The position numbers and the translations under genes were made by a program. Positions 1-50,117 of a stretch of 64,000 bases of DNA are shown here, piece after piece. Location of the stretch: the IMG/VR virus record IMGVR_UViG_3300027702_000001; one strand, given 5' to 3'. The first letter of the stretch is position 1. Every line of letters begins with the position of its first letter. The stretch comes from a virus. The notes below the pieces were generated by a model. The model was not told the DNA's origin and searched no databases. It saw only the letters and a list, made by a program, of their open reading frames with translations.

Positions 1-1856
1 ATGGTCTCCCTCTTCATCTTCATTTTTTGGTCATACGCCGAAACGTACGTCGCGAGTTCCGAGTAACTTTTATCAATGTAGGGTTCAATCTTCTCTTGGC
101 AGATCTTGTCAAGTATCCCCACAACTGCGTCTTTATCGCCACACTTACTACCAAAAAATTTATCAACAAGAGGTCCAAGGTTAAGATAGATTGAGTCAGT
201 GTCAGATGCAATGACATAATCCTCCTTTTCCGTGTTGAGTAAGTTATTTAGGTAATCATTCATACGATTCTCAATCCAACGGATTGAAACCTGACCAGAA
301 AGAGTGATTGCTTCAGCATTCGCTAGGTTAAAATACCTAAAGTATTGGTTACCAATAGCACCATATGCAGAGTTCAATTGAATCTTTCTCGCCATCTGTA
401 TGTTATTGAAGGCAGAAATATCATCCTGTAACTTTTTGTTACCTGTCTTCTCAAATTCTTTCTTCGCTTGAATCATCTTCTTCTTAAAGATCACACGTTC
501 ATCGTAGATCTTCTGCATCATCTTGGGTAGAAATCCTTGGATGTCTTTCCTGTACTGTGCTCTGTTGGCACACACACAGTAATCTCCACTGATTTGTACT
601 TCTCTGTTGAGCAGTCCATCAACACTGGCGGTGGGGTGTCTTGTATCGATGAGGGTCTCAGGCGAAATATTATACTGCATAATGAGATGAGGATACAGAG
701 AGTTAAGGTCAAACGAAACAACCCAATCGTAGAGTCCTGGTTTGGGTTCTTTGACGTATGCTCCTGCGTACTTGTCGTTCTTGGTGCTCTCTTGTCTTGG
801 GGGGACACAGATTTTACGCTCCTTCAGATAGTTGTAGATGAGTGTATCCCACATACGAACCTGAGAATAAACATCCTCGAAGTTTACCTTGGCATCGTAT
901 GCCATCACGACAGCAAGTTCCAGTAGTTTCATCTTGTGTTCAAGACGATCTACTAGTTCAACGTCAATGATGTTGTATTCAACGAACTTCTGCCAGTCAT
1001 CAGTATAGAATGCTTTGAAGTTCTCAAACTCACTGTGATCTAACTTACGTTGATCTAGTTCGACAAACGCAATGTGATCCAGACGATATGATTCCTGATT
1101 GGTATATGTAAACTTTCGGTATAGATCAAGGTAATCCAGAATGCTTACTCCAAGAATGTTGTAGGACAAATTCCTACGACCCTTGATGTAAACCTCACGC
1201 ATATTAACTTTGTTCCAAGGTGATAATGATTTTTGCCACTTCTCACCTAGCACACGTTCAATGCGACGACAGATATAGGGGATGTCGTACAGATTACAAT
1301 TCCAACCAGTCACCACATCAGGAGTGTTCTCTACCCACCAAGAATGGAAGTCAGTCAACATCTCCTGTTCAGTCCAGAAGCAACGATACTCAGTATCAAT
1401 CTTTGCTTCACGGGTTCCCCAAGTGATGAACTTACCACTAGAAAGATCTTTAATAGTAATAAGAAGCATCTCCTCTTGACACGCTTCGGTATCAGGGAAA
1501 CCATTCTCGCAAGCAACCTCGATGTCAATCGTATAGATCTTCATCTGCTCAAGGTTTGCCCTCATATCCTGAGGGTATTTCTCTGAGATCCATTGATATA
1601 CAAATCGTTCGTAACCGTGCACCTCAAAACCTTCAACACCTTTATACTTCTCGATGAACTCACGAGCACGTTTAGCACCGTCTTGTTTGACAGGTGCCAT
1701 CTTCTCGCCATCAAGAGTCCTCCACTTACCTTTCGGTGATGGAACATACAGCGTTGGTTTGATGATTTCCTTATACGAAATAGGGACACCATCCTCATAC
1801 CCTCGGCAGAGAATAGCGTCACCTAGCAGTGTTACGTTTGTATAGACTGAACTCAA
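1..1856 (-). CDS. gp43: DNA polymerase, family B (T4 gp43-like); 3' end runs off the window; probable TTG start
   Basis: Hand translation of the minus strand gives one open frame. It contains exonuclease motifs (IYTIDIE, VVTGWNCNLYDIPY), SFDLNSLYP, GKRKIQLNSAYG and YVIASDTDS. The TTG at 1856-1854 overlaps the upstream TGA. The ORF track misses this gene because there is no stop in the window. Confidence 0.97.
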   Translation of the reverse strand, partial: MSSVYTNVTLLGDAILCRGYEDGVPISYKEIIKPTLYVPSPKGKWRTLDGEKMAPVKQDGAKRAREFIEKYKGVEGFEVHGYERFVYQWISEKYPQDMRANLEQMKIYTIDIEVACENGFPDTEACQEEMLLITIKDLSSGKFITWGTREAKIDTEYRCFWTEQEMLTDFHSWWVENTPDVVTGWNCNLYDIPYICRRIERVLGEKWQKSLSPWNKVNMREVYIKGRRNLSYNILGVSILDYLDLYRKFTYTNQESYRLDHIAFVELDQRKLDHSEFENFKAFYTDDWQKFVEYNIIDVELVDRLEHKMKLLELAVVMAYDAKVNFEDVYSQVRMWDTLIYNYLKERKICVPPRQESTKNDKYAGAYVKEPKPGLYDWVVSFDLNSLYPHLIMQYNISPETLIDTRHPTASVDGLLNREVQISGDYCVCANRAQYRKDIQGFLPKMMQKIYDERVIFKKKMIQAKKEFEKTGNKKLQDDISAFNNIQMARKIQLNSAYGAIGNQYFRYFNLANAEAITLSGQVSIRWIENRMNDYLNNLLNTEKEDYVIASDTDSIYLNLGPLVDKFFGSKCGDKDAVVGILDKICQEKIEPYIDKSYSELATYVSAYDQKMKMKRET

Positions 1857-2847: not shown

Positions 2848-3288
2848 CTACTCAATATTATATACCTTTCTCTTGTGACTGTCAGGTACAATTTTATTAA
2901 GTTCTATGGTCAAAAGACCATCTTTGTAATCGACGCTGCCAAGTTTTACATCATCAGAGAGTGTGAATGTCCTTGCAAAGGTACGTTTCGCTACACCTTT
3001 GTGTAGGTATCCTCTGTGGTCATCGTTCTTCTCTTTGACTGTCCTGATTGATAGGACGTTAGTTTCTGTTGCGACCTCGAACTCATCCTTTCTGAATCCT
3101 GCTAGTGCTACTTCGATCTTCCATTTAGTTTCTGACTCTTTGATCAGGTTGTATGGAGGGTAGGATTTTGTCTCGTGATCTGCTAGTGCTCTTGACTCTA
3201 GTCTGTGAAAGATATTGTCGAGTCCGACTGAGTATGACCTAGATGCCTGTAAGATTTTATCTAGATCACTTGATGTGAATTGATTCAT
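2848..3288 (-). CDS. hsp20: Small heat-shock protein (alpha-crystallin/Hsp20 family)
   Basis: Motifs YPPYNLIK, IEVALAGF, YLHKGVAKRTFARTFTLSD and DGLLTIEL. The ATG at 3288 has an AAGGAG SD 8 nt upstream, so it is preferred over the track's 3339 GTG. Confidence 0.95.
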   Translation of the reverse strand: MNQFTSSDLDKILQASRSYSVGLDNIFHRLESRALADHETKSYPPYNLIKESETKWKIEVALAGFRKDEFEVATETNVLSIRTVKEKNDDHRGYLHKGVAKRTFARTFTLSDDVKLGSVDYKDGLLTIELNKIVPDSHKRKVYNIE

Positions 3289-3342
3289 TTGTACTGCTCC
3301 TTTAAAGCGAGAGTTTGGTGTTGTCCCCGAAGGCGACACAAT

Positions 3343-3410: not shown

Positions 3411-3417
3411 CTAAATA
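3411..3417 (+). promoter_or_regulatory. Late-promoter-like CTAAATA upstream of the plus-strand cassette
   Basis: CTAAATA lies about 30 nt before the ATG at 3449. The same variant precedes gp18 (33824-33830) and the prohead-core gene (28625-28631). Confidence 0.6.
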
Positions 3418-3448: not shown

Positions 3449-3949
3449 ATGAAAAGAGCAGCGATGCTTTTCGTAATGACTTTGATGACGGCACCTGCAT
3501 ATGCCGATGTTACACATAAACTATCTTCTTCAGTGCAACTCACAGTTGATGCAGCGGCAACCAATGTTCAACGTGTTGGGTCAACTTATAGTATTAGTGG
3601 AAACAATGTGACCACACAATACACACCTCAAGGTGGAAGTGCTACATCATCTATTGGTAGTCTTACAGTCTCATCAGGCGTTGGAGCGATTCCAACGTTG
3701 TCAGCGACCCAAGCGACTGCAGGGGAAAGTTTCAGCTTTACTCAGTCATTCTATCAAGGGGACGCTTTAGGTGGTGCTGCACCGACTGTTGGTGAAGTAC
3801 ATAACTTCAGTAACCAGACATCGACTGCTGCTGGATCTGCTGGATCTCTTGCTGGTACTGTGGATTCCAGTTCAACCACTGCGGTAACTGCTGGTGGAGC
3901 GGGTACAAGTGCTGTGGGTCAATTTGTCAGCGAAATCACCATCCGATAA
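3449..3949 (+). CDS. Exported S/T/G/A-rich protein A, 166 aa
   Basis: Sec signal peptide MKRAAMLFVMTLMTAPAYA|D. The mature part is nearly uncharged and beta-strand-like. Confidence 0.85.
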   Translation: MKRAAMLFVMTLMTAPAYADVTHKLSSSVQLTVDAAATNVQRVGSTYSISGNNVTTQYTPQGGSATSSIGSLTVSSGVGAIPTLSATQATAGESFSFTQSFYQGDALGGAAPTVGEVHNFSNQTSTAAGSAGSLAGTVDSSSTTAVTAGGAGTSAVGQFVSEITIR

Positions 3950-4384
3950 ATGAAAAGAATAGTTGCTACATTGGCACTGTTATCTTTCGCTGGAACTCCA
4001 GTGATAGCAGTGCCTGTAGTGCCTAATTTCACTCAAGGATCGATGACGTCTCACACTGAGACTACTTCTAAGGTGACTGAGACAATAAATTCTATGGACT
4101 ATGCTACTGGTTGGGTTTACTCAGTAAGTGGTACAAATGTAAAACACGATGGTTCATCTATGACACCAGGTGTCAGTGAACAATCTCAAACTATTGATGG
4201 TGTGACTTCAAAATGGACAGGATTAAACGTAAATCAAAAACCAAACTGGACCCAAAATCAAGTGGGCAATGCATTCCAGTTCACAGAAACTTATTCTGGA
4301 CCAGGACTCCAGAATCAAACAATTATTCAGAGGGTAACAGAGGTAACAAGCGTCACAGACACAACCTCAATCTTCCAACAATAG
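3950..4384 (+). CDS. Exported T/S/Q-rich protein B, 144 aa
   Basis: Signal peptide MKRIVATLALLSFAGTPVIA|VPVVPNF. The ATG directly follows the stop of gene A. Confidence 0.85.
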   Translation: MKRIVATLALLSFAGTPVIAVPVVPNFTQGSMTSHTETTSKVTETINSMDYATGWVYSVSGTNVKHDGSSMTPGVSEQSQTIDGVTSKWTGLNVNQKPNWTQNQVGNAFQFTETYSGPGLQNQTIIQRVTEVTSVTDTTSIFQQ

Positions 4385-5274
4385 GAGCACTTACCTTTGC
4401 ACTACTTGCACCACAGATAGCACACGCATCTGATATTGGTGGTGTGTCTGCTACTGCATCTCCAATCGCGAATAGTTCAGGCTCAGTGACCAATCAGGCA
4501 ATTCAGGTTTTACAAGGTCCATATATTACTAATACTTATGGGGGTGGTATTCAATGTCAAGGTAGTACACTTAACATCACACCATTTGTCACTGGTAGTG
4601 CATCTGGACAGAAACCTTGGGAAGATGAATGGTGGGATAATGTATATGATATGCGTGATCAAGAAGGTGCTACTGATGTAAATGGTGCTGTTACAGGAGA
4701 TGGAGTGCCCGATAATCCAGGAAATATTTTATATAAAGTTCCTGTAAGAACAGGACAGAAGGATACATATAACCTATCTCTTGGTGTAAGTGCTACGTGG
4801 TCTATTCCACTTGATAAGAAAGCACAAAACGATTGTAAGAGAGCAGCAGAAACACAGAATGATATGCAGAGACAACTGATTGCTAACAAGCGATTAGATT
4901 TTGAGATCGCGAGATTAAAAAATTGTGGTGAATTGATTCAGAAGGGAATCACCTTCCACCCCAAGTCACCTTATTATGCAATATGTGCCGACGTTATGGT
5001 GAACAACGTGTCATATATCAAACCACACGTACATTCAGTTGAACAAAAATCTACCTCTTCTTCATCTTCCTCAGTTCGCGAAGTGCCCGTGTCCTCATCC
5101 GCTGATGATCTCGGCGGTCCCTTTGAGATTGGAGACGTGGAGTCTTTCCAAGAGCAATCGAAATCTTCGTTATCGTCTTCTTCACAACAGGTTTCACCAC
5201 TTTCAAAAGAAGATCAACAATCGGTTTTGCGAGCAGTGCAGAGGTGGCAGCGACAGCAGCAATCGAACCAGTAG
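4213..5274 (+). CDS. Exported protein C with an amphipathic beta-hairpin and long helix (candidate outer-membrane protein); start uncertain
   Basis: Signal-like segment KRHRHNLNLPTIGALTFALLAPQIAHA|S. Strictly alternating strand YNLSLGVSATWSIPL. Four Cys in the mature part. The only canonical start is the ATG at 4213, inside gene B. Confidence 0.8.
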   Translation: MDRIKRKSKTKLDPKSSGQCIPVHRNLFWTRTPESNNYSEGNRGNKRHRHNLNLPTIGALTFALLAPQIAHASDIGGVSATASPIANSSGSVTNQAIQVLQGPYITNTYGGGIQCQGSTLNITPFVTGSASGQKPWEDEWWDNVYDMRDQEGATDVNGAVTGDGVPDNPGNILYKVPVRTGQKDTYNLSLGVSATWSIPLDKKAQNDCKRAAETQNDMQRQLIANKRLDFEIARLKNCGELIQKGITFHPKSPYYAICADVMVNNVSYIKPHVHSVEQKSTSSSSSSVREVPVSSSADDLGGPFEIGDVESFQEQSKSSLSSSSQQVSPLSKEDQQSVLRAVQRWQRQQQSNQ

Positions 5275-5821
5275 TAACTATTAGTCCTGCATTAGGAATG
5301 TTCTCTGTTATCTGCTGAGTCACAGTCAAAGGTTCAGTAACCTCAATACATTCTTTACCGACAAGTTCGTACGCAACTATCTTCTTATTACCCTGTAGGA
5401 TCTTTCCTATGGGGTTTTTTAATTCTTGTGTCCTAGTAGGACATTCTGTACTAGGGATGTCTGGTACCTTTGTCTCTGGTACATTCAGTTCTGGTTGATC
5501 ATTCTCAAACTTAGGTGGCACTACAGGAGGTGCCTCAAACTTTAGATCATCCTTGTTATAGTCCATCGCACTATAGGATGGTACACCTGCATCACAATAT
5601 ATCCTTGCTCCACTATCATCGTCAGCAACTAAGTTACTATTCTTACCATCATCAGATGGATGTGCTTCTACACACCCAGGCATATCAACAATAGGTACTC
5701 CCACCTGTGTAGTTGCAGGTGCATAGATTGGGATTGCTTGAGGTACACTATTGATCCAGTCGTAATTCTGAATCTCAGGTATCTCCAGTTCCCTCACTCC
5801 GATCTCTGGAATCTCTGTCAT
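5051..5821 (-). CDS. Membrane protein, about 256 aa: Pro/acidic N-domain with 4 Cys, C-terminal hydrophobic segment and basic tail
   Basis: Long ORF with LIVTTGSIAAVAATSALLAKPIVDLLLKVV followed by an R/K-rich tail. ATG 5821 is preferred to GTG 5857. Confidence 0.8.
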   Translation of the reverse strand: MTEIPEIGVRELEIPEIQNYDWINSVPQAIPIYAPATTQVGVPIVDMPGCVEAHPSDDGKNSNLVADDDSGARIYCDAGVPSYSAMDYNKDDLKFEAPPVVPPKFENDQPELNVPETKVPDIPSTECPTRTQELKNPIGKILQGNKKIVAYELVGKECIEVTEPLTVTQQITENIPNAGLIVTTGSIAAVAATSALLAKPIVDLLLKVVKPVVKKTITKISIALGKTPRLQSQRDRRDHQRMRTRALRELRKMKKR

Positions 5822-6035
5822 AATCTGAACTAATGGAAATAGACCAACCGTCTTCACCGAAGACTCCTTCTTCGATTACTCTAGGTAAGTTACGTTCTTT
5901 ATCTCTTTTATCTAGTGCTTTGTGATACTCATCGATCTCTGAGTCGAGTTCGAGATTAAATTTTAGCAGTCTCAACCACATCAAAAGTTTCTCAAGGTAA
6001 TACTTAATTAACTTTTTGAGGAAGGGACCTATCAT
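5775..6035 (-). CDS. Hypothetical protein, up to 86 aa
   Basis: ORF with an ATGA overlap to the upstream gene; the true start may be a later Met. Confidence 0.65.
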   Translation of the reverse strand: MIGPFLKKLIKYYLEKLLMWLRLLKFNLELDSEIDEYHKALDKRDKERNLPRVIEEGVFGEDGWSISISSDYDRDSRDRSEGTGDT

Positions 6036-6586
6036 TCAGTCATCTCCTCTTCGCAGTCATTCAGACTGAGAGCAATCTCTCCACCAATGTCTGCACCTTT
6101 GTTACCACCAAATAGAGCAACACCACCTGCGAGGATTGGACCAACAAACGGTATGCCTGATAAGGCAGGAGCAGCAGCGGCACCCATACTAGCGCCTACT
6201 ATTGCACCGCTTTGTTCTCCACCACCTTCCGCCTTGATACATTCTAGTTTCTTGGCAGTTAACTTTCCCACTCCGTCAGCGGAATTACCTCCCAGATGAA
6301 GAGATCCATCCATAGTGTATTGATTTGACTTTCTGATATTAGTTTTACCACCAATACCAAAGAATCCATTCTTCTTGTCAACGTATGTATCTTTACTCAT
6401 CACCTTTGGATCATTACCTTTGTAACTAATCCGATAACCATCTTCTGATACATATGCATCATAAGAACTATAGGGTCCTACTGGAGGATTTAATGTTGGA
6501 AGTGTTTGTTTGTTTGCAATCAGACCGATCATTCCGATGTGTGCTACACCGAATAATACACCTGCACTAACAGCGAACCATTTCAT
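6032..6586 (-). CDS. Membrane protein, 184 aa, with an N-terminal TM/signal and a C-terminal glycine-zipper hairpin flanked by Cys
   Basis: N-terminus MKWFAVSAGVLFGVAHIGMIGLIA; GxxxG repeats in GAIVGASMGAAAAPALSGIPFVGPILAGGVALFGGNKGADIGG. Confidence 0.85.
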   Translation of the reverse strand: MKWFAVSAGVLFGVAHIGMIGLIANKQTLPTLNPPVGPYSSYDAYVSEDGYRISYKGNDPKVMSKDTYVDKKNGFFGIGGKTNIRKSNQYTMDGSLHLGGNSADGVGKLTAKKLECIKAEGGGEQSGAIVGASMGAAAAPALSGIPFVGPILAGGVALFGGNKGADIGGEIALSLNDCEEEMTE

Positions 6587-6825
6587 TACATTCCTGGGAT
6601 AGATGGTTTAATTGGGGGCATCGCAGGACCACTAACATCAGGAATCATATCGTCCATCATATCAGGAACGATTCCACCTACTGCTTCGACAACCAAATTG
6701 GTTAGTCTTTCTCTTGCCTGTTCTGCAACCTTGTCTCTGTTGGCGTAACCATAAACTAAAGCGCCAGTAACTACACCAGCGAACACAAAGTTAACTACAA
6801 CGAGTCCGTTAATAATTTTTTGCAT
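6586..6825 (-). CDS. Bitopic membrane protein, 79 aa
   Basis: TM segment IINGLVVVNFVFAGVVTGALVYGYA, then a short amphipathic helix and a Pro-rich tail; TAATG coupling to the next gene. Confidence 0.8.
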   Translation of the reverse strand: MQKIINGLVVVNFVFAGVVTGALVYGYANRDKVAEQARERLTNLVVEAVGGIVPDMMDDMIPDVSGPAMPPIKPSIPGM

Positions 6826-6827
6826 AA

Positions 6828-7274
6828 TTACATCTCATACTTTTTAGGATCAGTTTCGGTAGTTATTTTCAAAGGTGCTTGTTCGACACGAATGACTTGT
6901 GCTGGTGCAGTTTGTGATGCTGCAGCAATCAGTCTTTCCATATCTGCCTTTGTTATCCCATTGCCACCACCGTTAGCAGCACCATTACCATTGTTCTTTT
7001 TGGCGGTTTGGACCCCGAAAGTCGCTAAAACCCCAGTGAAGACGCTGGCTATGAAAGTTGGATCGAGATCCTGTTCGGGAAAGTTGAGTGCCTTAGGCAG
7101 GTCAACGTACGCTAAAGTGAGGATACCACCAGACCAAACAAGAATACCAAGTCTCACGAAAGTAGATAGAATCGCGAGTTGTTCTTCCTTATCTTCTGAT
7201 GCCTCCTTTAGGCGACCAAAAAAACCTTTTGGTTTCTCTGGTTGTTTTTTCTTTTCTTCTTCTGCCATAGTCAC
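6828..7274 (-). CDS. Two-TM membrane protein, 148 aa
   Basis: Hydrophobic segments LAILSTFVRLGILVWSGGILTLAYV and TFIASVFTGVLATFGV, with a charged N-terminus. Confidence 0.85.
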   Translation of the reverse strand: MTMAEEEKKKQPEKPKGFFGRLKEASEDKEEQLAILSTFVRLGILVWSGGILTLAYVDLPKALNFPEQDLDPTFIASVFTGVLATFGVQTAKKNNGNGAANGGGNGITKADMERLIAAASQTAPAQVIRVEQAPLKITTETDPKKYEM

Positions 7275-7296
7275 TATGAAGGACTACTATATATAT

Positions 7297-7719
7297 CTAC
7301 TCTGCGACCTGACGTTTCTTACCGATATTATATTTAGACTCTAAAATCCAGTCACCCTTGTCCTTGTAAGAGATAACCTTGATCTGATTCAATGGTGCAA
7401 GTTCACCAAGTTCTTCATCAACAACATCTACAAGTCCCCAGTCGGACAGTAGTTTAGTAATTCTGTTACGACGTTCTACATCGTTAGAAGTTAGGTTCGC
7501 GTGCTTTCCGTCCAACGCAAACAACTCTTTAAAGTGTACGATATAATACTTGCCCTTCTTATGAAGAATATGACAACTCTGAAATAATTTCTTTTCCTTT
7601 CTCGATGCTACACCGATTCTGGTAAGCGTCTCTCTAACTTTCAGAAAATCATCTGGTTGTTTAAGACTAACTTCGACCATAATATCGGGTGACCAAGAAA
7701 TCTCGATCTCACCTGCCAT
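7297..7719 (-). CDS. regA: Translational repressor RegA
   Basis: DDFLKVRETLTRIGVASRKEKKLFQSCHILHK..YYIVHFKELFALDGK; follows gp62 as in T4. Confidence 0.97.
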   Translation of the reverse strand: MAGEIEISWSPDIMVEVSLKQPDDFLKVRETLTRIGVASRKEKKLFQSCHILHKKGKYYIVHFKELFALDGKHANLTSNDVERRNRITKLLSDWGLVDVVDEELGELAPLNQIKVISYKDKGDWILESKYNIGKKRQVAE

Positions 7720-33823: not shown

Positions 33824-33830
33824 TATTTAG
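33824..33830 (-). promoter_or_regulatory. Late promoter CTAAATA for gp18
   Basis: Variant late motif about 40 nt before the gp18 ATG. Confidence 0.65.
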
Positions 33831-49578: not shown

Positions 49579-49626
49579 TGGTTAACACACGTGGTATCCG
49601 TTAACGGAGATAATCTGCCTCTCAGA

Positions 49627-49634
49627 TATTTATA
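49627..49634 (-). promoter_or_regulatory. Late promoter TATAAATA for the fibre-gp13 operon
   Basis: Exact consensus just downstream of the terminator. Confidence 0.85.
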
Positions 49635-49642
49635 CAGCAAAT

Positions 49643-49663
49643 AAAAAGGACCCTTTCGGGTCC
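49643..49663 (-). terminator. Intrinsic terminator
   Basis: GGACCC-GAAA-GGGTCC-TTTTT on the minus strand. Confidence 0.85.
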
Positions 49664-49668
49664 AAAGG

Positions 49669-49896
49669 TTATGCAGCGTCTACGTTATCCACTTCTGGAG
49701 CAGGTTCCGCTTCATTCTCTGTACCGAGGCAGTATTCTAGAGTCTCAATAGCACCTTGTAATTTAAGTGCTTGCTGTTCATTGCTGCGAATCATCTTCGC
49801 CATTCTTTGATTATCTTCAATAAGACGCTTATAGCGGTCTTTGAAATCGCCAAGAAGTTTATCTTGGTCAATTACTTCAGGTTGGTCTGCAGGCAT
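49669..49896 (-). CDS. Small coiled-coil protein, 75 aa
   Basis: Heptad-like helix ending KLQGAIETLEY. Confidence 0.75.
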   Translation of the reverse strand: MPADQPEVIDQDKLLGDFKDRYKRLIEDNQRMAKMIRSNEQQALKLQGAIETLEYCLGTENEAEPAPEVDNVDAA

Positions 49897-50117
49897 TACT
49901 TTTGCTCCAATAATGTTTTCAGTAAGGATTTGATTTCCGACATATCTGATTTTAACACATCTACGTCAGATTTCAAGTTATCGAGGGTTTCAGCACTCGC
50001 TTTACGCTTTTTAGCAGCGTTCCCAGGAGGTGTGGGTTTCATATTTAGGACAGCGTTAGTATTGGAATCCCGAACTAAATCGGGATGTCCTTTAACGGGA
50101 ATGTAATCAGAGGTCAC
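49896..50117 (-). CDS. Small protein, 73 aa
   Basis: IPVKGHPDLVRDSNTNAVLN followed by a C-terminal coiled coil; follows the DUF4815-like gene. Confidence 0.8.
   Translation of the reverse strand: MTSDYIPVKGHPDLVRDSNTNAVLNMKPTPPGNAAKKRKASAETLDNLKSDVDVLKSDMSEIKSLLKTLLEQK

Follow-up and report, generated by a model that had tools for sequence, protein, structure and literature searches.

The block of eight genes at positions 3449 to 7274 of a 64,000-nucleotide stretch of viral DNA (IMG/VR record IMGVR_UViG_3300027702_000001; the whole stretch is called the window here) is, as judged from comparison with related loci, a mobile module and not a local island, and it is carried by four otherwise unrelated cyanophage lineages. 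Its genes, named A, B, C, D, E86, F, G and H (Table 1), very probably form one functional envelope module. Tentatively, and with a probability of roughly 0.4, we read this module as a non-canonical lysis or outer-membrane-breaching apparatus that would stand in for holin and spanin functions. This reading is favored because the module is the one late, envelope-directed gene set common to the four lineages, because its version in T7-like phages sits in the interval between tail fiber and terminase genes, which is the place of the holin in T7, because a survey of spanins lists phages of Prochlorococcus and Synechococcus as spanin-less, and because the overlapped B/C gene pair echoes the overlapped architecture of spanin genes.

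The window comes from a T4-like cyanomyovirus. The neighborhood of the block contains a fragment of a T4-type DNA polymerase gene (3-1856, minus strand), clamp-loader genes and many long minus-strand open reading frames (ORFs). The block itself comprises the equivalents of Syn9 gp167 to gp161 plus one lineage-specific small gene, E86; A, B and C, on the plus strand, are convergent on the five minus-strand genes D, E86, F, G and H. The original prediction, an annotation made before the comparisons described here, had placed the block between regA and hsp20, and these flanks were borne out. The same common layout (hsp20, three plus-strand genes, four minus-strand genes and regA) was found in Syn9, S-CAM8 and P-TIM40. 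Cyanophage P-TIM40 was the nearest isolate, with an A protein 80% identical, and one IMG/VR contig was 95 to 100% identical over the whole block.

All eight ORFs of the block are real genes. Each was present where it had been predicted, with the start of D revised to the ATG at 5821. Seven of the eight products matched large PHROG families (564, 650, 848/1755, 570, 605, 568 and 2714). None of the 16 other plus-strand ORFs of at least 100 amino acids (aa) in the window had a PHROG match, in agreement with the view that A, B and C are its only credible plus-strand genes. Scans of the eight products against Pfam, NCBIfam, PADLOC and PHROG matched no family of known function; the original prediction had recognized no catalytic motif in any of them. 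The tight gene junctions described earlier (TAA-ATG, ATGA and TAATG) also agree with the sequence.

Distribution of the module among cyanophages

Of the 84 myovirus loci compared, 80 came from IMG/VR and the other 4 from isolates. B, C and D each had homologues in 80 to 84 of these loci, and A in 72. Wherever present, A, B and C lay on one strand and converged on D, and D was convergent on C in all loci having both. For their part, F, G and H were detected in 59 to 63 of the 84 loci (F in 59 and G in 60); they were usually near the other genes, often split from them by insertions or reordered, and F was often displaced by insertions. E86 was found only in the four closest loci (L005, L006, L009 and L010). 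Its ratio of nonsynonymous to synonymous polymorphism (pN/pS), calculated from few substitutions, was 0.06 to 0.10 in its own frame versus more than 3 in the other two frames, and this purifying selection in its own frame only indicates a real lineage-specific gene. A weak match of E86 to phrog_6464 (2e-6) was also observed.

The flanking genes were less constant. hsp20 and regA enclose the block in some lineages only; S-SCSM1 has the module some 60 kb away from both, and P-HM2 has it next to the hli genes. In S-TIM5, which belongs to a separate myovirus lineage, hsp20, A, B, C and D are arranged as in the window. Many T4-like cyanophages, like S-TIM5 (L181, 3481-3915), have hsp20 immediately ahead of A and on the other strand, an arrangement not found in S-SCSM1 and P-HM2; hsp20 and the module may be functionally linked.

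Outside the myoviruses, the 38.8-kb phage MED4-117 contains H, A, B and C facing D and G, its G homologue adjoining D, and the MPP-C podoviruses P-SCSP1g and P-SCSP1h, similar in size to MED4-117, carry C. Among T7-like cyanopodoviruses, all 80 IMG/VR loci showed the order short D, H, B, C, S (52 aa) and terS (small terminase); D, H, S and terS were individually recognized in 68 to 75 of the 80. The shorter D placed before H in these phages is a homologue or an analogue of the myovirus protein (phrog_9426), and the podovirus H, B and C proteins fall into the same PHROGs as those of the window. In the annotated isolates NATL1A-7, P-SSP3, S-TIP37 and P-SSP7 the cassette follows closely on the tail fiber genes. 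It corresponds to genes 042 to 046 of P-SSP7, of which 042 to 044 were originally annotated as '1 TM' (PSSP7_042, in the place of D), '2 TM' (PSSP7_043) and 'SignalP', TM denoting a transmembrane segment. A was present in myoviruses, S-TIM5 and MED4-117, and the T7-like cassettes showed no distinct ORF resembling it. No homologue of F was detected in T7-like phages, MED4-117 or P-HM2.

The order kept in the 84 loci, the relocation of the module as a block and its occurrence in three further lineages thus support the earlier proposal that these genes constitute one coherent unit and are not independent of each other.

All database matches corresponded to cyanophages or marine viral contigs. Those found in assemblies labeled as bacterial were located on short contigs of metagenome-assembled or single-amplified genomes or on contigs of about 190 kb, the size of a whole cyanomyovirus genome. 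Similarly, DUF6322, the Pfam family of B, exceeded its threshold in 1 of 201 host-family genomes, and that genome included a 189-kb phage contig. A host origin of the genes was considered and rejected, the 'bacterial' matches being taken as phage DNA.

The families are widely represented. A gave tblastn matches in 409 cyanophage records, C was found in 436 such records and had 590 representatives at 50% identity in an exhaustive profile search, and H matched 440 records, including those of the T7-like phages P-SSP2, P-SSP3, P-GSP1 and S-TIP37. A profile search of a large protein set recovered more than 8,000 clusters of B at 90% identity from metagenomes; these clusters were near-identical and added neither diversity nor a named protein. 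By this count, the module is among the most widespread phage gene sets of unknown function in ocean metagenomes. The open literature searched neither names nor discusses its genes, which are annotated as hypothetical, 'OMP1' or 'plasmid stability protein'.

Overlapping reading frames and late expression

The start of C lies inside B, in the -1 frame. In every myovirus locus reaching that region (L061 ends earlier) the C frame was open and contained an ATG 165 to 171 nucleotides (nt) before the stop codon of B. When B was recoded synonymously at phage codon usage, the frame stayed open in about 3% of cases and the ATG was kept in about 37%; both features were observed in 39 of 39 nonredundant loci. 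The region of C upstream of its signal peptide, which starts right where B ends, is a basic leader of 54 to 57 aa. Over the same bases, pN/pS was 2.5 to 8.5 for this leader versus 0.06 to 0.07 for B. The leader is therefore kept open and provided with an ATG while having a pN/pS above 1, which points to selection on the upstream start and the open frame and not on the peptide.

In T7-like loci the B/C overlap ranged from 67 to 364 nt, often being 67 or 112 nt, and C then has a signal peptide of ordinary length; in MED4-117 the overlap was 139 nt. The overlapped architecture is, according to these comparisons, under selection in every lineage, and it provides a clean case of selection holding an alternative frame open while the protein sequence is not conserved. 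A -1 frameshift fusing B to C was also considered and is unlikely: the internal ATG was kept in 39 of 39 loci, and its conservation favors a separate initiation of C over frameshifting.

The 3' ends of C and D overlap as well, in antisense. In this second overlap pN/pS was 0.09 to 0.34 in the D frame and 0.9 to 3.0 in the tail of C, and D is thus the constrained reading. The overlap is shorter elsewhere (80 nt in Syn9 and 95 nt in S-CAM8), and the tail of C is lineage-specific past approximately residue 305. As for the 5' end of D, its ORF extends to a GTG at 5857, and the phrog_570 alignment begins at residue 15 of that longer ORF. The ATG at 5821 is most likely the true start, since the homologues and the profile open with M-(T)-EIPEI.

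A late-promoter-like CTAAATA had been reported ahead of the plus-strand genes, and it was found upstream of A in the window. Of 66 related loci, 61 had TAAATA in the 150 nt upstream of A and 43 had CTAAATA there, with positions from -28 to -38 predominating. Some loci read GATAAATA or CATAAATA at this place, in agreement with the published consensus of cyanomyovirus late promoters, NATAAATA (PMC2984593). The motif upstream of H constitutes a weak case, given that it coincides with conserved regA coding sequence. In relatives with another gene upstream of H, a CTAAATA or GATAAATA precedes H by about 29 nt.

Timing was taken from the published transcriptome of P-HM2, whose S2 Table assigns genes to clusters in the light and in the dark (PMC5082946). 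The homologues of H (PHM2_191) and G (PHM2_192) were both classed as Late E in the light and D in the dark, that of D (PHM2_194) as Late D under both conditions, that of C (PHM2_195) as Mid C under both, that of B (PHM2_196) as Late D in the light and Mid C in the dark, and that of A (PHM2_197) as Late E under both (PMC5082946). On either side, PHM2_188, 189 and 198 were Mid B, and PHM2_190 was Mid B/C (PMC5082946). Since its late genes sit between Mid B flanks, the P-HM2 module forms a discrete late island, and the late expression proposed earlier is thereby upheld, with C at Mid C. One further gene of this island, PHM2_193 (L182, 5492-5767; Late D/D [PMC5082946]), encodes a 91-aa protein of the cyanophage-core cluster T4-GC 43. 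It lies between D and G, in the place occupied by E86 and F in the window, and matches none of the eight window proteins.

Envelope-directed products and their possible role

TM and other hydrophobic segments were taken from a hydropathy scan with a 19-residue threshold, and the signal peptides of A, B and C were read from the sequence. The scan recovered such segments in five products (B, D, F, G and H); E86 had none, and the shorter signal cores of A and C fell under the threshold. AxA-type cleavage sites were present in A, B and C, in C only after its basic extension, which agrees with the Sec-type signals proposed for the three. Hydrophobic or TM segments had likewise been proposed for four of the five minus-strand products, and D, F, G and H were the four. 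Altogether, the signal peptides, TM segments, charge bias and conserved cysteines of D fit the claim that seven of the eight products are directed to the envelope, E86 lacking such a segment.

A and B are both exported by a signal peptide, free of Cys, rich in Ser, Thr, Gly and Ala and predicted to be rich in beta structure. B matched DUF6322 with an E value of 2.5e-43 and 147.1 bits, versus a Pfam gathering cut-off of 30.6, and phrog_650 at 7e-63. Its ends are invariant from myoviruses to T7-like podoviruses (PxFxxGSM at the mature N terminus and SxF.Q-COOH at the C terminus). A is distantly paralogous to B, a relation provided by hhalign (probability, 92.7%; E, 4e-7); the direct score of A against DUF6322 was 14.3 bits only. 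Some GenBank records label A as 'OMP1 protein', a label for which no support was found here and which is probably misleading.

C matched phrog_848 at 1e-126. The mature protein consists of a near-invariant N-terminal stretch of 30 aa, beta-hairpins and a 42-aa helix, and it has four conserved Cys residues; at residues 186 to 200 a strand with strictly alternating hydrophobic and polar residues is kept family-wide. An AlphaFold2 model of full-length C built with 57 close relatives had a mean predicted local distance difference test score (pLDDT) of 52.8. After diverse representatives had been added, the model of the mature part reached 76.8. In this model, which was used for the fold search, the 42-residue helix scored above 90, and the first 22 residues, though near-invariant, were disordered. 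In Foldseek against PDB the best E value was 0.4, with neither CsgG nor TolC among the listed matches; the weak rows (E of at least 0.4) included aerolysin-type beta-pore-forming toxins, the L-ring protein FlgH and phage collar proteins. VIA-align gave Z scores of 5.1 or less and matched the helix only, BFVD returned only C's own family, and profiles built from the C and B alignments found nothing informative in PDB. A metallopeptidase role suggested by an HxH motif in C was rejected, T7-like homologues lacking the motif. In the full-length model, the last 20 residues of the Ser-rich tail of C, which overlaps D, were predicted as a helix at a pLDDT of approximately 81 to 84.

D has no signal peptide. 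It begins with a conserved EIPxI motif, and its N-terminal domain is acidic (net -17), rich in proline (21 Pro) and endowed with 4 conserved Cys residues; a TM segment and a basic tail (net +16) form the C terminus. Given the acidic N-terminal domain and the basic tail, the positive-inside rule suggests an N-out/C-in topology, in which D would be an anchor spanning the periplasm. F carries a hydrophobic segment at its N terminus, and its C-terminal region, hydrophobic and rich in Gly and Ala, resembles a 'glycine zipper'. G is a small bitopic membrane protein. Its family (phrog_568) is named 'plasmid stability protein' in many GenBank records and treated as such in one paper (PMC9602691); no support for this name was found here, and it is probably misleading. 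H contains two TM segments, an invariant DPTFIASVF motif, charged ends, an acidic loop and a Lys after the second TM segment. It matched DUF6450 (2.4e-36; 123.8 bits versus a cut-off of 25) and phrog_2714 (6e-68). H belongs to no described holin family, its only matches being DUF6450 and phrog_2714, phrog_721 and phrog_21865, all of unknown function.

Prochlorococcus and Synechococcus outnumber all other photosynthetic cells of the sea, and their lysis by viruses moves a large share of ocean carbon. To our knowledge, no holin, endolysin or spanin has been identified in the main phages of these hosts. In T7, the holin gene 17.5 is located between tail fiber gene 17 and terminase gene 18, and the spanin genes 18.5/18.7 come just after. 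Among 91 'spanin-less' phages in the spanin survey, 20 infect Prochlorococcus or Synechococcus, including Syn9 and P-SSP7 (PMC6139136). That survey also predicts an alternative of this kind, and its description fits D with C and B (PMC6139136). Cyanomyoviruses, in addition, lack the T4 r genes (PMC2984593).

A mechanism can be outlined on this basis. Late transcription would yield H, a small inner-membrane protein with two TM segments and a holin-like topology, together with D, anchored in the inner membrane by its C-terminal TM segment with the basic tail in the cytoplasm. The acidic, proline-rich, disulfide-bearing N-terminal domain of D would cross the periplasm. B and C would be produced from their overlapping frames and exported through Sec, accompanied in myoviruses by the B paralogue A. 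C may associate through its 42-residue helix, and its amphipathic beta-hairpin and invariant N-terminal peptide may contact one or more of three targets, namely the outer membrane, D and B. A D-B-C assembly would breach the outer membrane after damage to the inner membrane and the wall. F, G and E86 would be lineage-variable accessory or regulatory membrane proteins. In its most specific form, namely a horizontally spread, Sec-dependent trans-envelope lysis apparatus non-homologous to known ones, made of H, D as a 'reverse-orientation' anchor and B/C, with C oligomerizing in the outer membrane, this proposal is rather doubtful.

Two-component spanins (lambda Rz/Rz1, T7 gp18.5/18.7 and P2 LysB/LysC) offer the closest comparison in general design. 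They resemble the module in that a periplasm-spanning protein anchored in the inner membrane acts late with an exported partner or partners, in the overlapping-frame pair whose second gene starts within the 3' part of the first, as in B/C, in the conserved periplasmic cysteines and in the T7-like position between tail fiber and terminase genes. However, there is no similarity in sequence or fold, the TM segment of the anchor D is C-terminal instead of N-terminal and D lies outside the overlapping pair, and the myovirus module has the extra members A, F and G. Unlike an i-spanin, which is a type II inner-membrane protein whose TM segment is N-terminal and whose periplasmic domain is a coiled coil, B has an N-terminal segment followed by AxA-type cleavage sites and a Thr/Ser-rich body with no helix-type pattern. 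Unlike an o-spanin, a small lipoprotein of the outer membrane with a lipobox Cys at +1, C has a signal ending AHA/S (AxA/E in relatives), no Cys at +1 and a mature part of approximately 230 aa. H, for its part, recalls class II holins (S21 of phage 21 and, by position, T7 gp17.5) in being small and late, with two TM segments and charged termini, and in T7-like cyanophages it is found between the tail fiber genes and the small terminase gene, as gp17.5 is in T7. Nevertheless, H matches no holin family and, at 100 to 150 aa, is longer than most class II holins, and the likeness is one of topology only.

The original prediction had listed a lysis apparatus as an alternative, and position and context now favor it, yet several points weigh against this interpretation. 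In profile scans of the eight products no component matched a holin, endolysin or spanin family. The module has no muralytic domain, and the endolysin would thus be encoded elsewhere or be unrecognizable. B and C depart from what defines spanins: the signal of B is cleavable, B contains no coiled coil and C lacks a lipobox. A signal peptide is absent from D, and exporting a 178-aa N-terminal domain without one is unusual. The fold of C had no informative match (Foldseek E of at least 0.4), the genome position in T7-like phages is circumstantial as evidence of lysis, and F, G and H are less tightly linked in myoviruses (59 to 63 of 84 loci, often displaced). Finally, among 'Synechococcus phage' records, 377 had regA versus 310 with C (E, 1e-5), so that about one in six of the regA-bearing records gave no match to C. 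T7-like cyanophages can now be engineered (PMC8776855), which makes the question of lysis directly testable.

A late remodeling or masking of the envelope without lysis, by superinfection exclusion, by receptor blocking that would spare progeny from loss on debris, or by an envelope stabilization that would time lysis in the manner of lysis inhibition, is unlikely. The parts would be of the same kind, a small membrane protein with two TM segments plus periplasmic proteins; the module is phage-specific, confined to one host group and devoid of a lytic domain; and a replacement of the T4 exclusion and lysis-inhibition genes, which cyanomyoviruses lack, is plausible (PMC2984593). On such a scheme, the role of T4 Imm would fall to H and that of T4 Sp or T5 Llp to the exported proteins. 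The T4 pair of Imm (membrane) and Sp (periplasmic) is indeed reminiscent of the block, which combines a small membrane protein with signal-peptide proteins near the replication genes of a T4-type phage; the T4 imm gene adjoins gene 43. However, no Pfam or PHROG similarity to Imm or Sp was found, and imm and sp are expressed early in T4. In P-HM2 the module is late, a timing that fits poorly with superinfection exclusion, the other alternative given in the original prediction. Moreover, in T7-like phages the module lies among late genes, at the place of the T7 lysis genes. It is also kept by T4-like, TIM5-like, T7-like and MPP-C phages, which differ in their virions and presumably in their receptors, and a universal step fits this distribution better than receptor masking does.

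The original prediction preferred a dedicated late envelope machine in which A and B could be secreted subunits and C their outer-membrane pore, with the minus-strand products as inner-membrane and periplasmic partners, analogous in logic to curli or Fap. The first part is supported by co-inheritance, timing and targeting; the second found no sequence or fold match, and a curli- or Fap-like system is very improbable. Like CsgA/B beside CsgG, A and B are two paralogous, exported, Ser/Thr/Gly-rich proteins of predicted beta-rich structure beside a third exported protein; the amphipathic strand and long helix of C are compatible with an oligomeric barrel; and the genes are co-inherited. Yet Pfam and PDB sequence searches revealed no curlin or Fap repeats, no similarity to CsgG or FapF and no lipoprotein, the paralogue A is dispensable in T7-like phages, so that an A/B pair is not required, and a surface fiber made shortly before lysis would bring no apparent benefit. 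The model of C, with long beta-hairpins followed by a long helix and with an alternating strand, recalls oligomeric outer-membrane barrels of the TolC/OEP type, CsgG and beta-pore-forming toxins. The listed fold matches were not significant (E of at least 0.4; VIA Z of 5.1 or less, helix only) and included no TolC-family chain, and there was no Pfam match to OEP, although a TolC-family protein may escape such a fold comparison.

A part in virion morphogenesis, or in the virion or entry as minor components (periplasmic proteins carried by the particle, or assembly factors linked to hsp20 or tail fibers), is remote. Although the genes are expressed late alongside structural genes and have tail fiber genes as neighbors in MED4-117 and the T7-like phages, or hsp20 in S-TIM5 and many of the myoviruses, the hsp20 linkage is not universal, and Sec signals and membrane anchors would lead the products out of the cytoplasm, where virions are assembled. 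The P-HM2 module clusters (T4-GC 234-237, 43, 414 and 218) did not appear among the proteins listed for virions of S-SM1, S-PM2 and Syn9 in the rows of parts 8-9 of Table S8 of Sullivan 2010, a table in which clusters may be split between genomes. In the original prediction, the signal peptides had been taken as an argument against capsid packaging. Least credible of all is the absence of any common function, with unrelated small membrane or exported genes held together by shared ancestry and a late promoter: F, G, H and E86 do vary in presence and order, but D, H, B and C co-occur in four lineages whose genes are otherwise largely unrelated, and the module relocates as a block with its B/C overlap conserved.

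Coordinates and minor observations

Table 1. Features of the block and its flanks in the window
Feature	Position	Strand	Description
hsp20	2848-3339	-	Flank of the block, as in Syn9, S-CAM8 and P-TIM40
Late-promoter-like CTAAATA	3411-3417	+	32 nt upstream of A
A (Syn9 gp167 family)	3449-3949	+	166 aa; signal peptide ending AYA/D; phrog_564, 3e-59; Ser/Thr/Gly/Ala-rich, no Cys
B (gp166 family, Pfam DUF6322)	3950-4384	+	144 aa; signal peptide ending VIA/VP
B/C dual-coding overlap	4213-4384	+	172 nt; sole in-frame ATG of C within B, -1 frame
C (gp165 family)	4213-5274	+	353 aa; signal peptide ending AHA/S; mature from approximately 4429
Overlap of C and D 3' ends	5051-5274		224 nt; convergent, antisense; from ORF coordinates
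D (gp164 family)	5051-5821	-	256 aa; phrog_570, 7e-93
E86	5775-6035	-	86 aa; amphipathic N-terminal helix, acidic C-terminal half; no hydrophobic segment
F (gp163 family)	6032-6586	-	184 aa; phrog_605, 8e-65
G (gp162 family)	6586-6825	-	79 aa; N-terminal TM segment, Pro-rich tail; phrog_568, 7.5e-17
H (gp161 family, Pfam DUF6450)	6828-7268/7274	-	146-148 aa; start ATG 7268 or GTG 7274
AT-rich TAGATATATATAG	7299-7287	-	Possible late-promoter-like element upstream of H; element region 7284-7337
CTAAATA upstream of H	7337-7331	-	Possible late-promoter-like element; inside the end of regA
regA	7297-7719	-	Flank of the block, as in Syn9, S-CAM8 and P-TIM40

Some annotations of T7-like genomes differ from the gene structure described here. 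In NATL1A-7 a clear DUF6322-like B gene with a signal peptide (L096:4654-5025) is missing from the RefSeq annotation, and the annotated 'gp165' starts approximately 110 codons too early, running through the overlap with the B frame. A conserved protein of about 105 aa was observed between the tail fiber genes and the module in T7-like phages and beside the module in MED4-117 (L096:3701-4009, L097:6865-7200 and L099:3095-3409), and it was not seen in the myovirus block. The 52-aa S protein of podoviruses showed no relation to E86 or G in hhalign.

In the window as a whole, CTAAATA occurs at chance level (12 copies versus 9.8 expected), with its copies at 245, 3411, 7331, 7897, 13756, 18192, 19984, 28267, 28625, 33824, 41754 and 50042. 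All 12 lie on the strand of the local long ORFs, which is the minus strand everywhere outside A to C, and those at 33824, 41754 and 50042 are placed in intergenic gaps before long ORFs. This strand bias and these gap positions are consistent with a late-promoter core. The last of the three gaps (49579-50106), of approximately 530 nt, has no minus-strand ORF of at least 100 aa and separates giant ORFs of 1972 and 2403 aa; it contains CTAAATA at 50042-50048 on the minus strand and a plus-strand ORF of 111 aa with no PHROG match.

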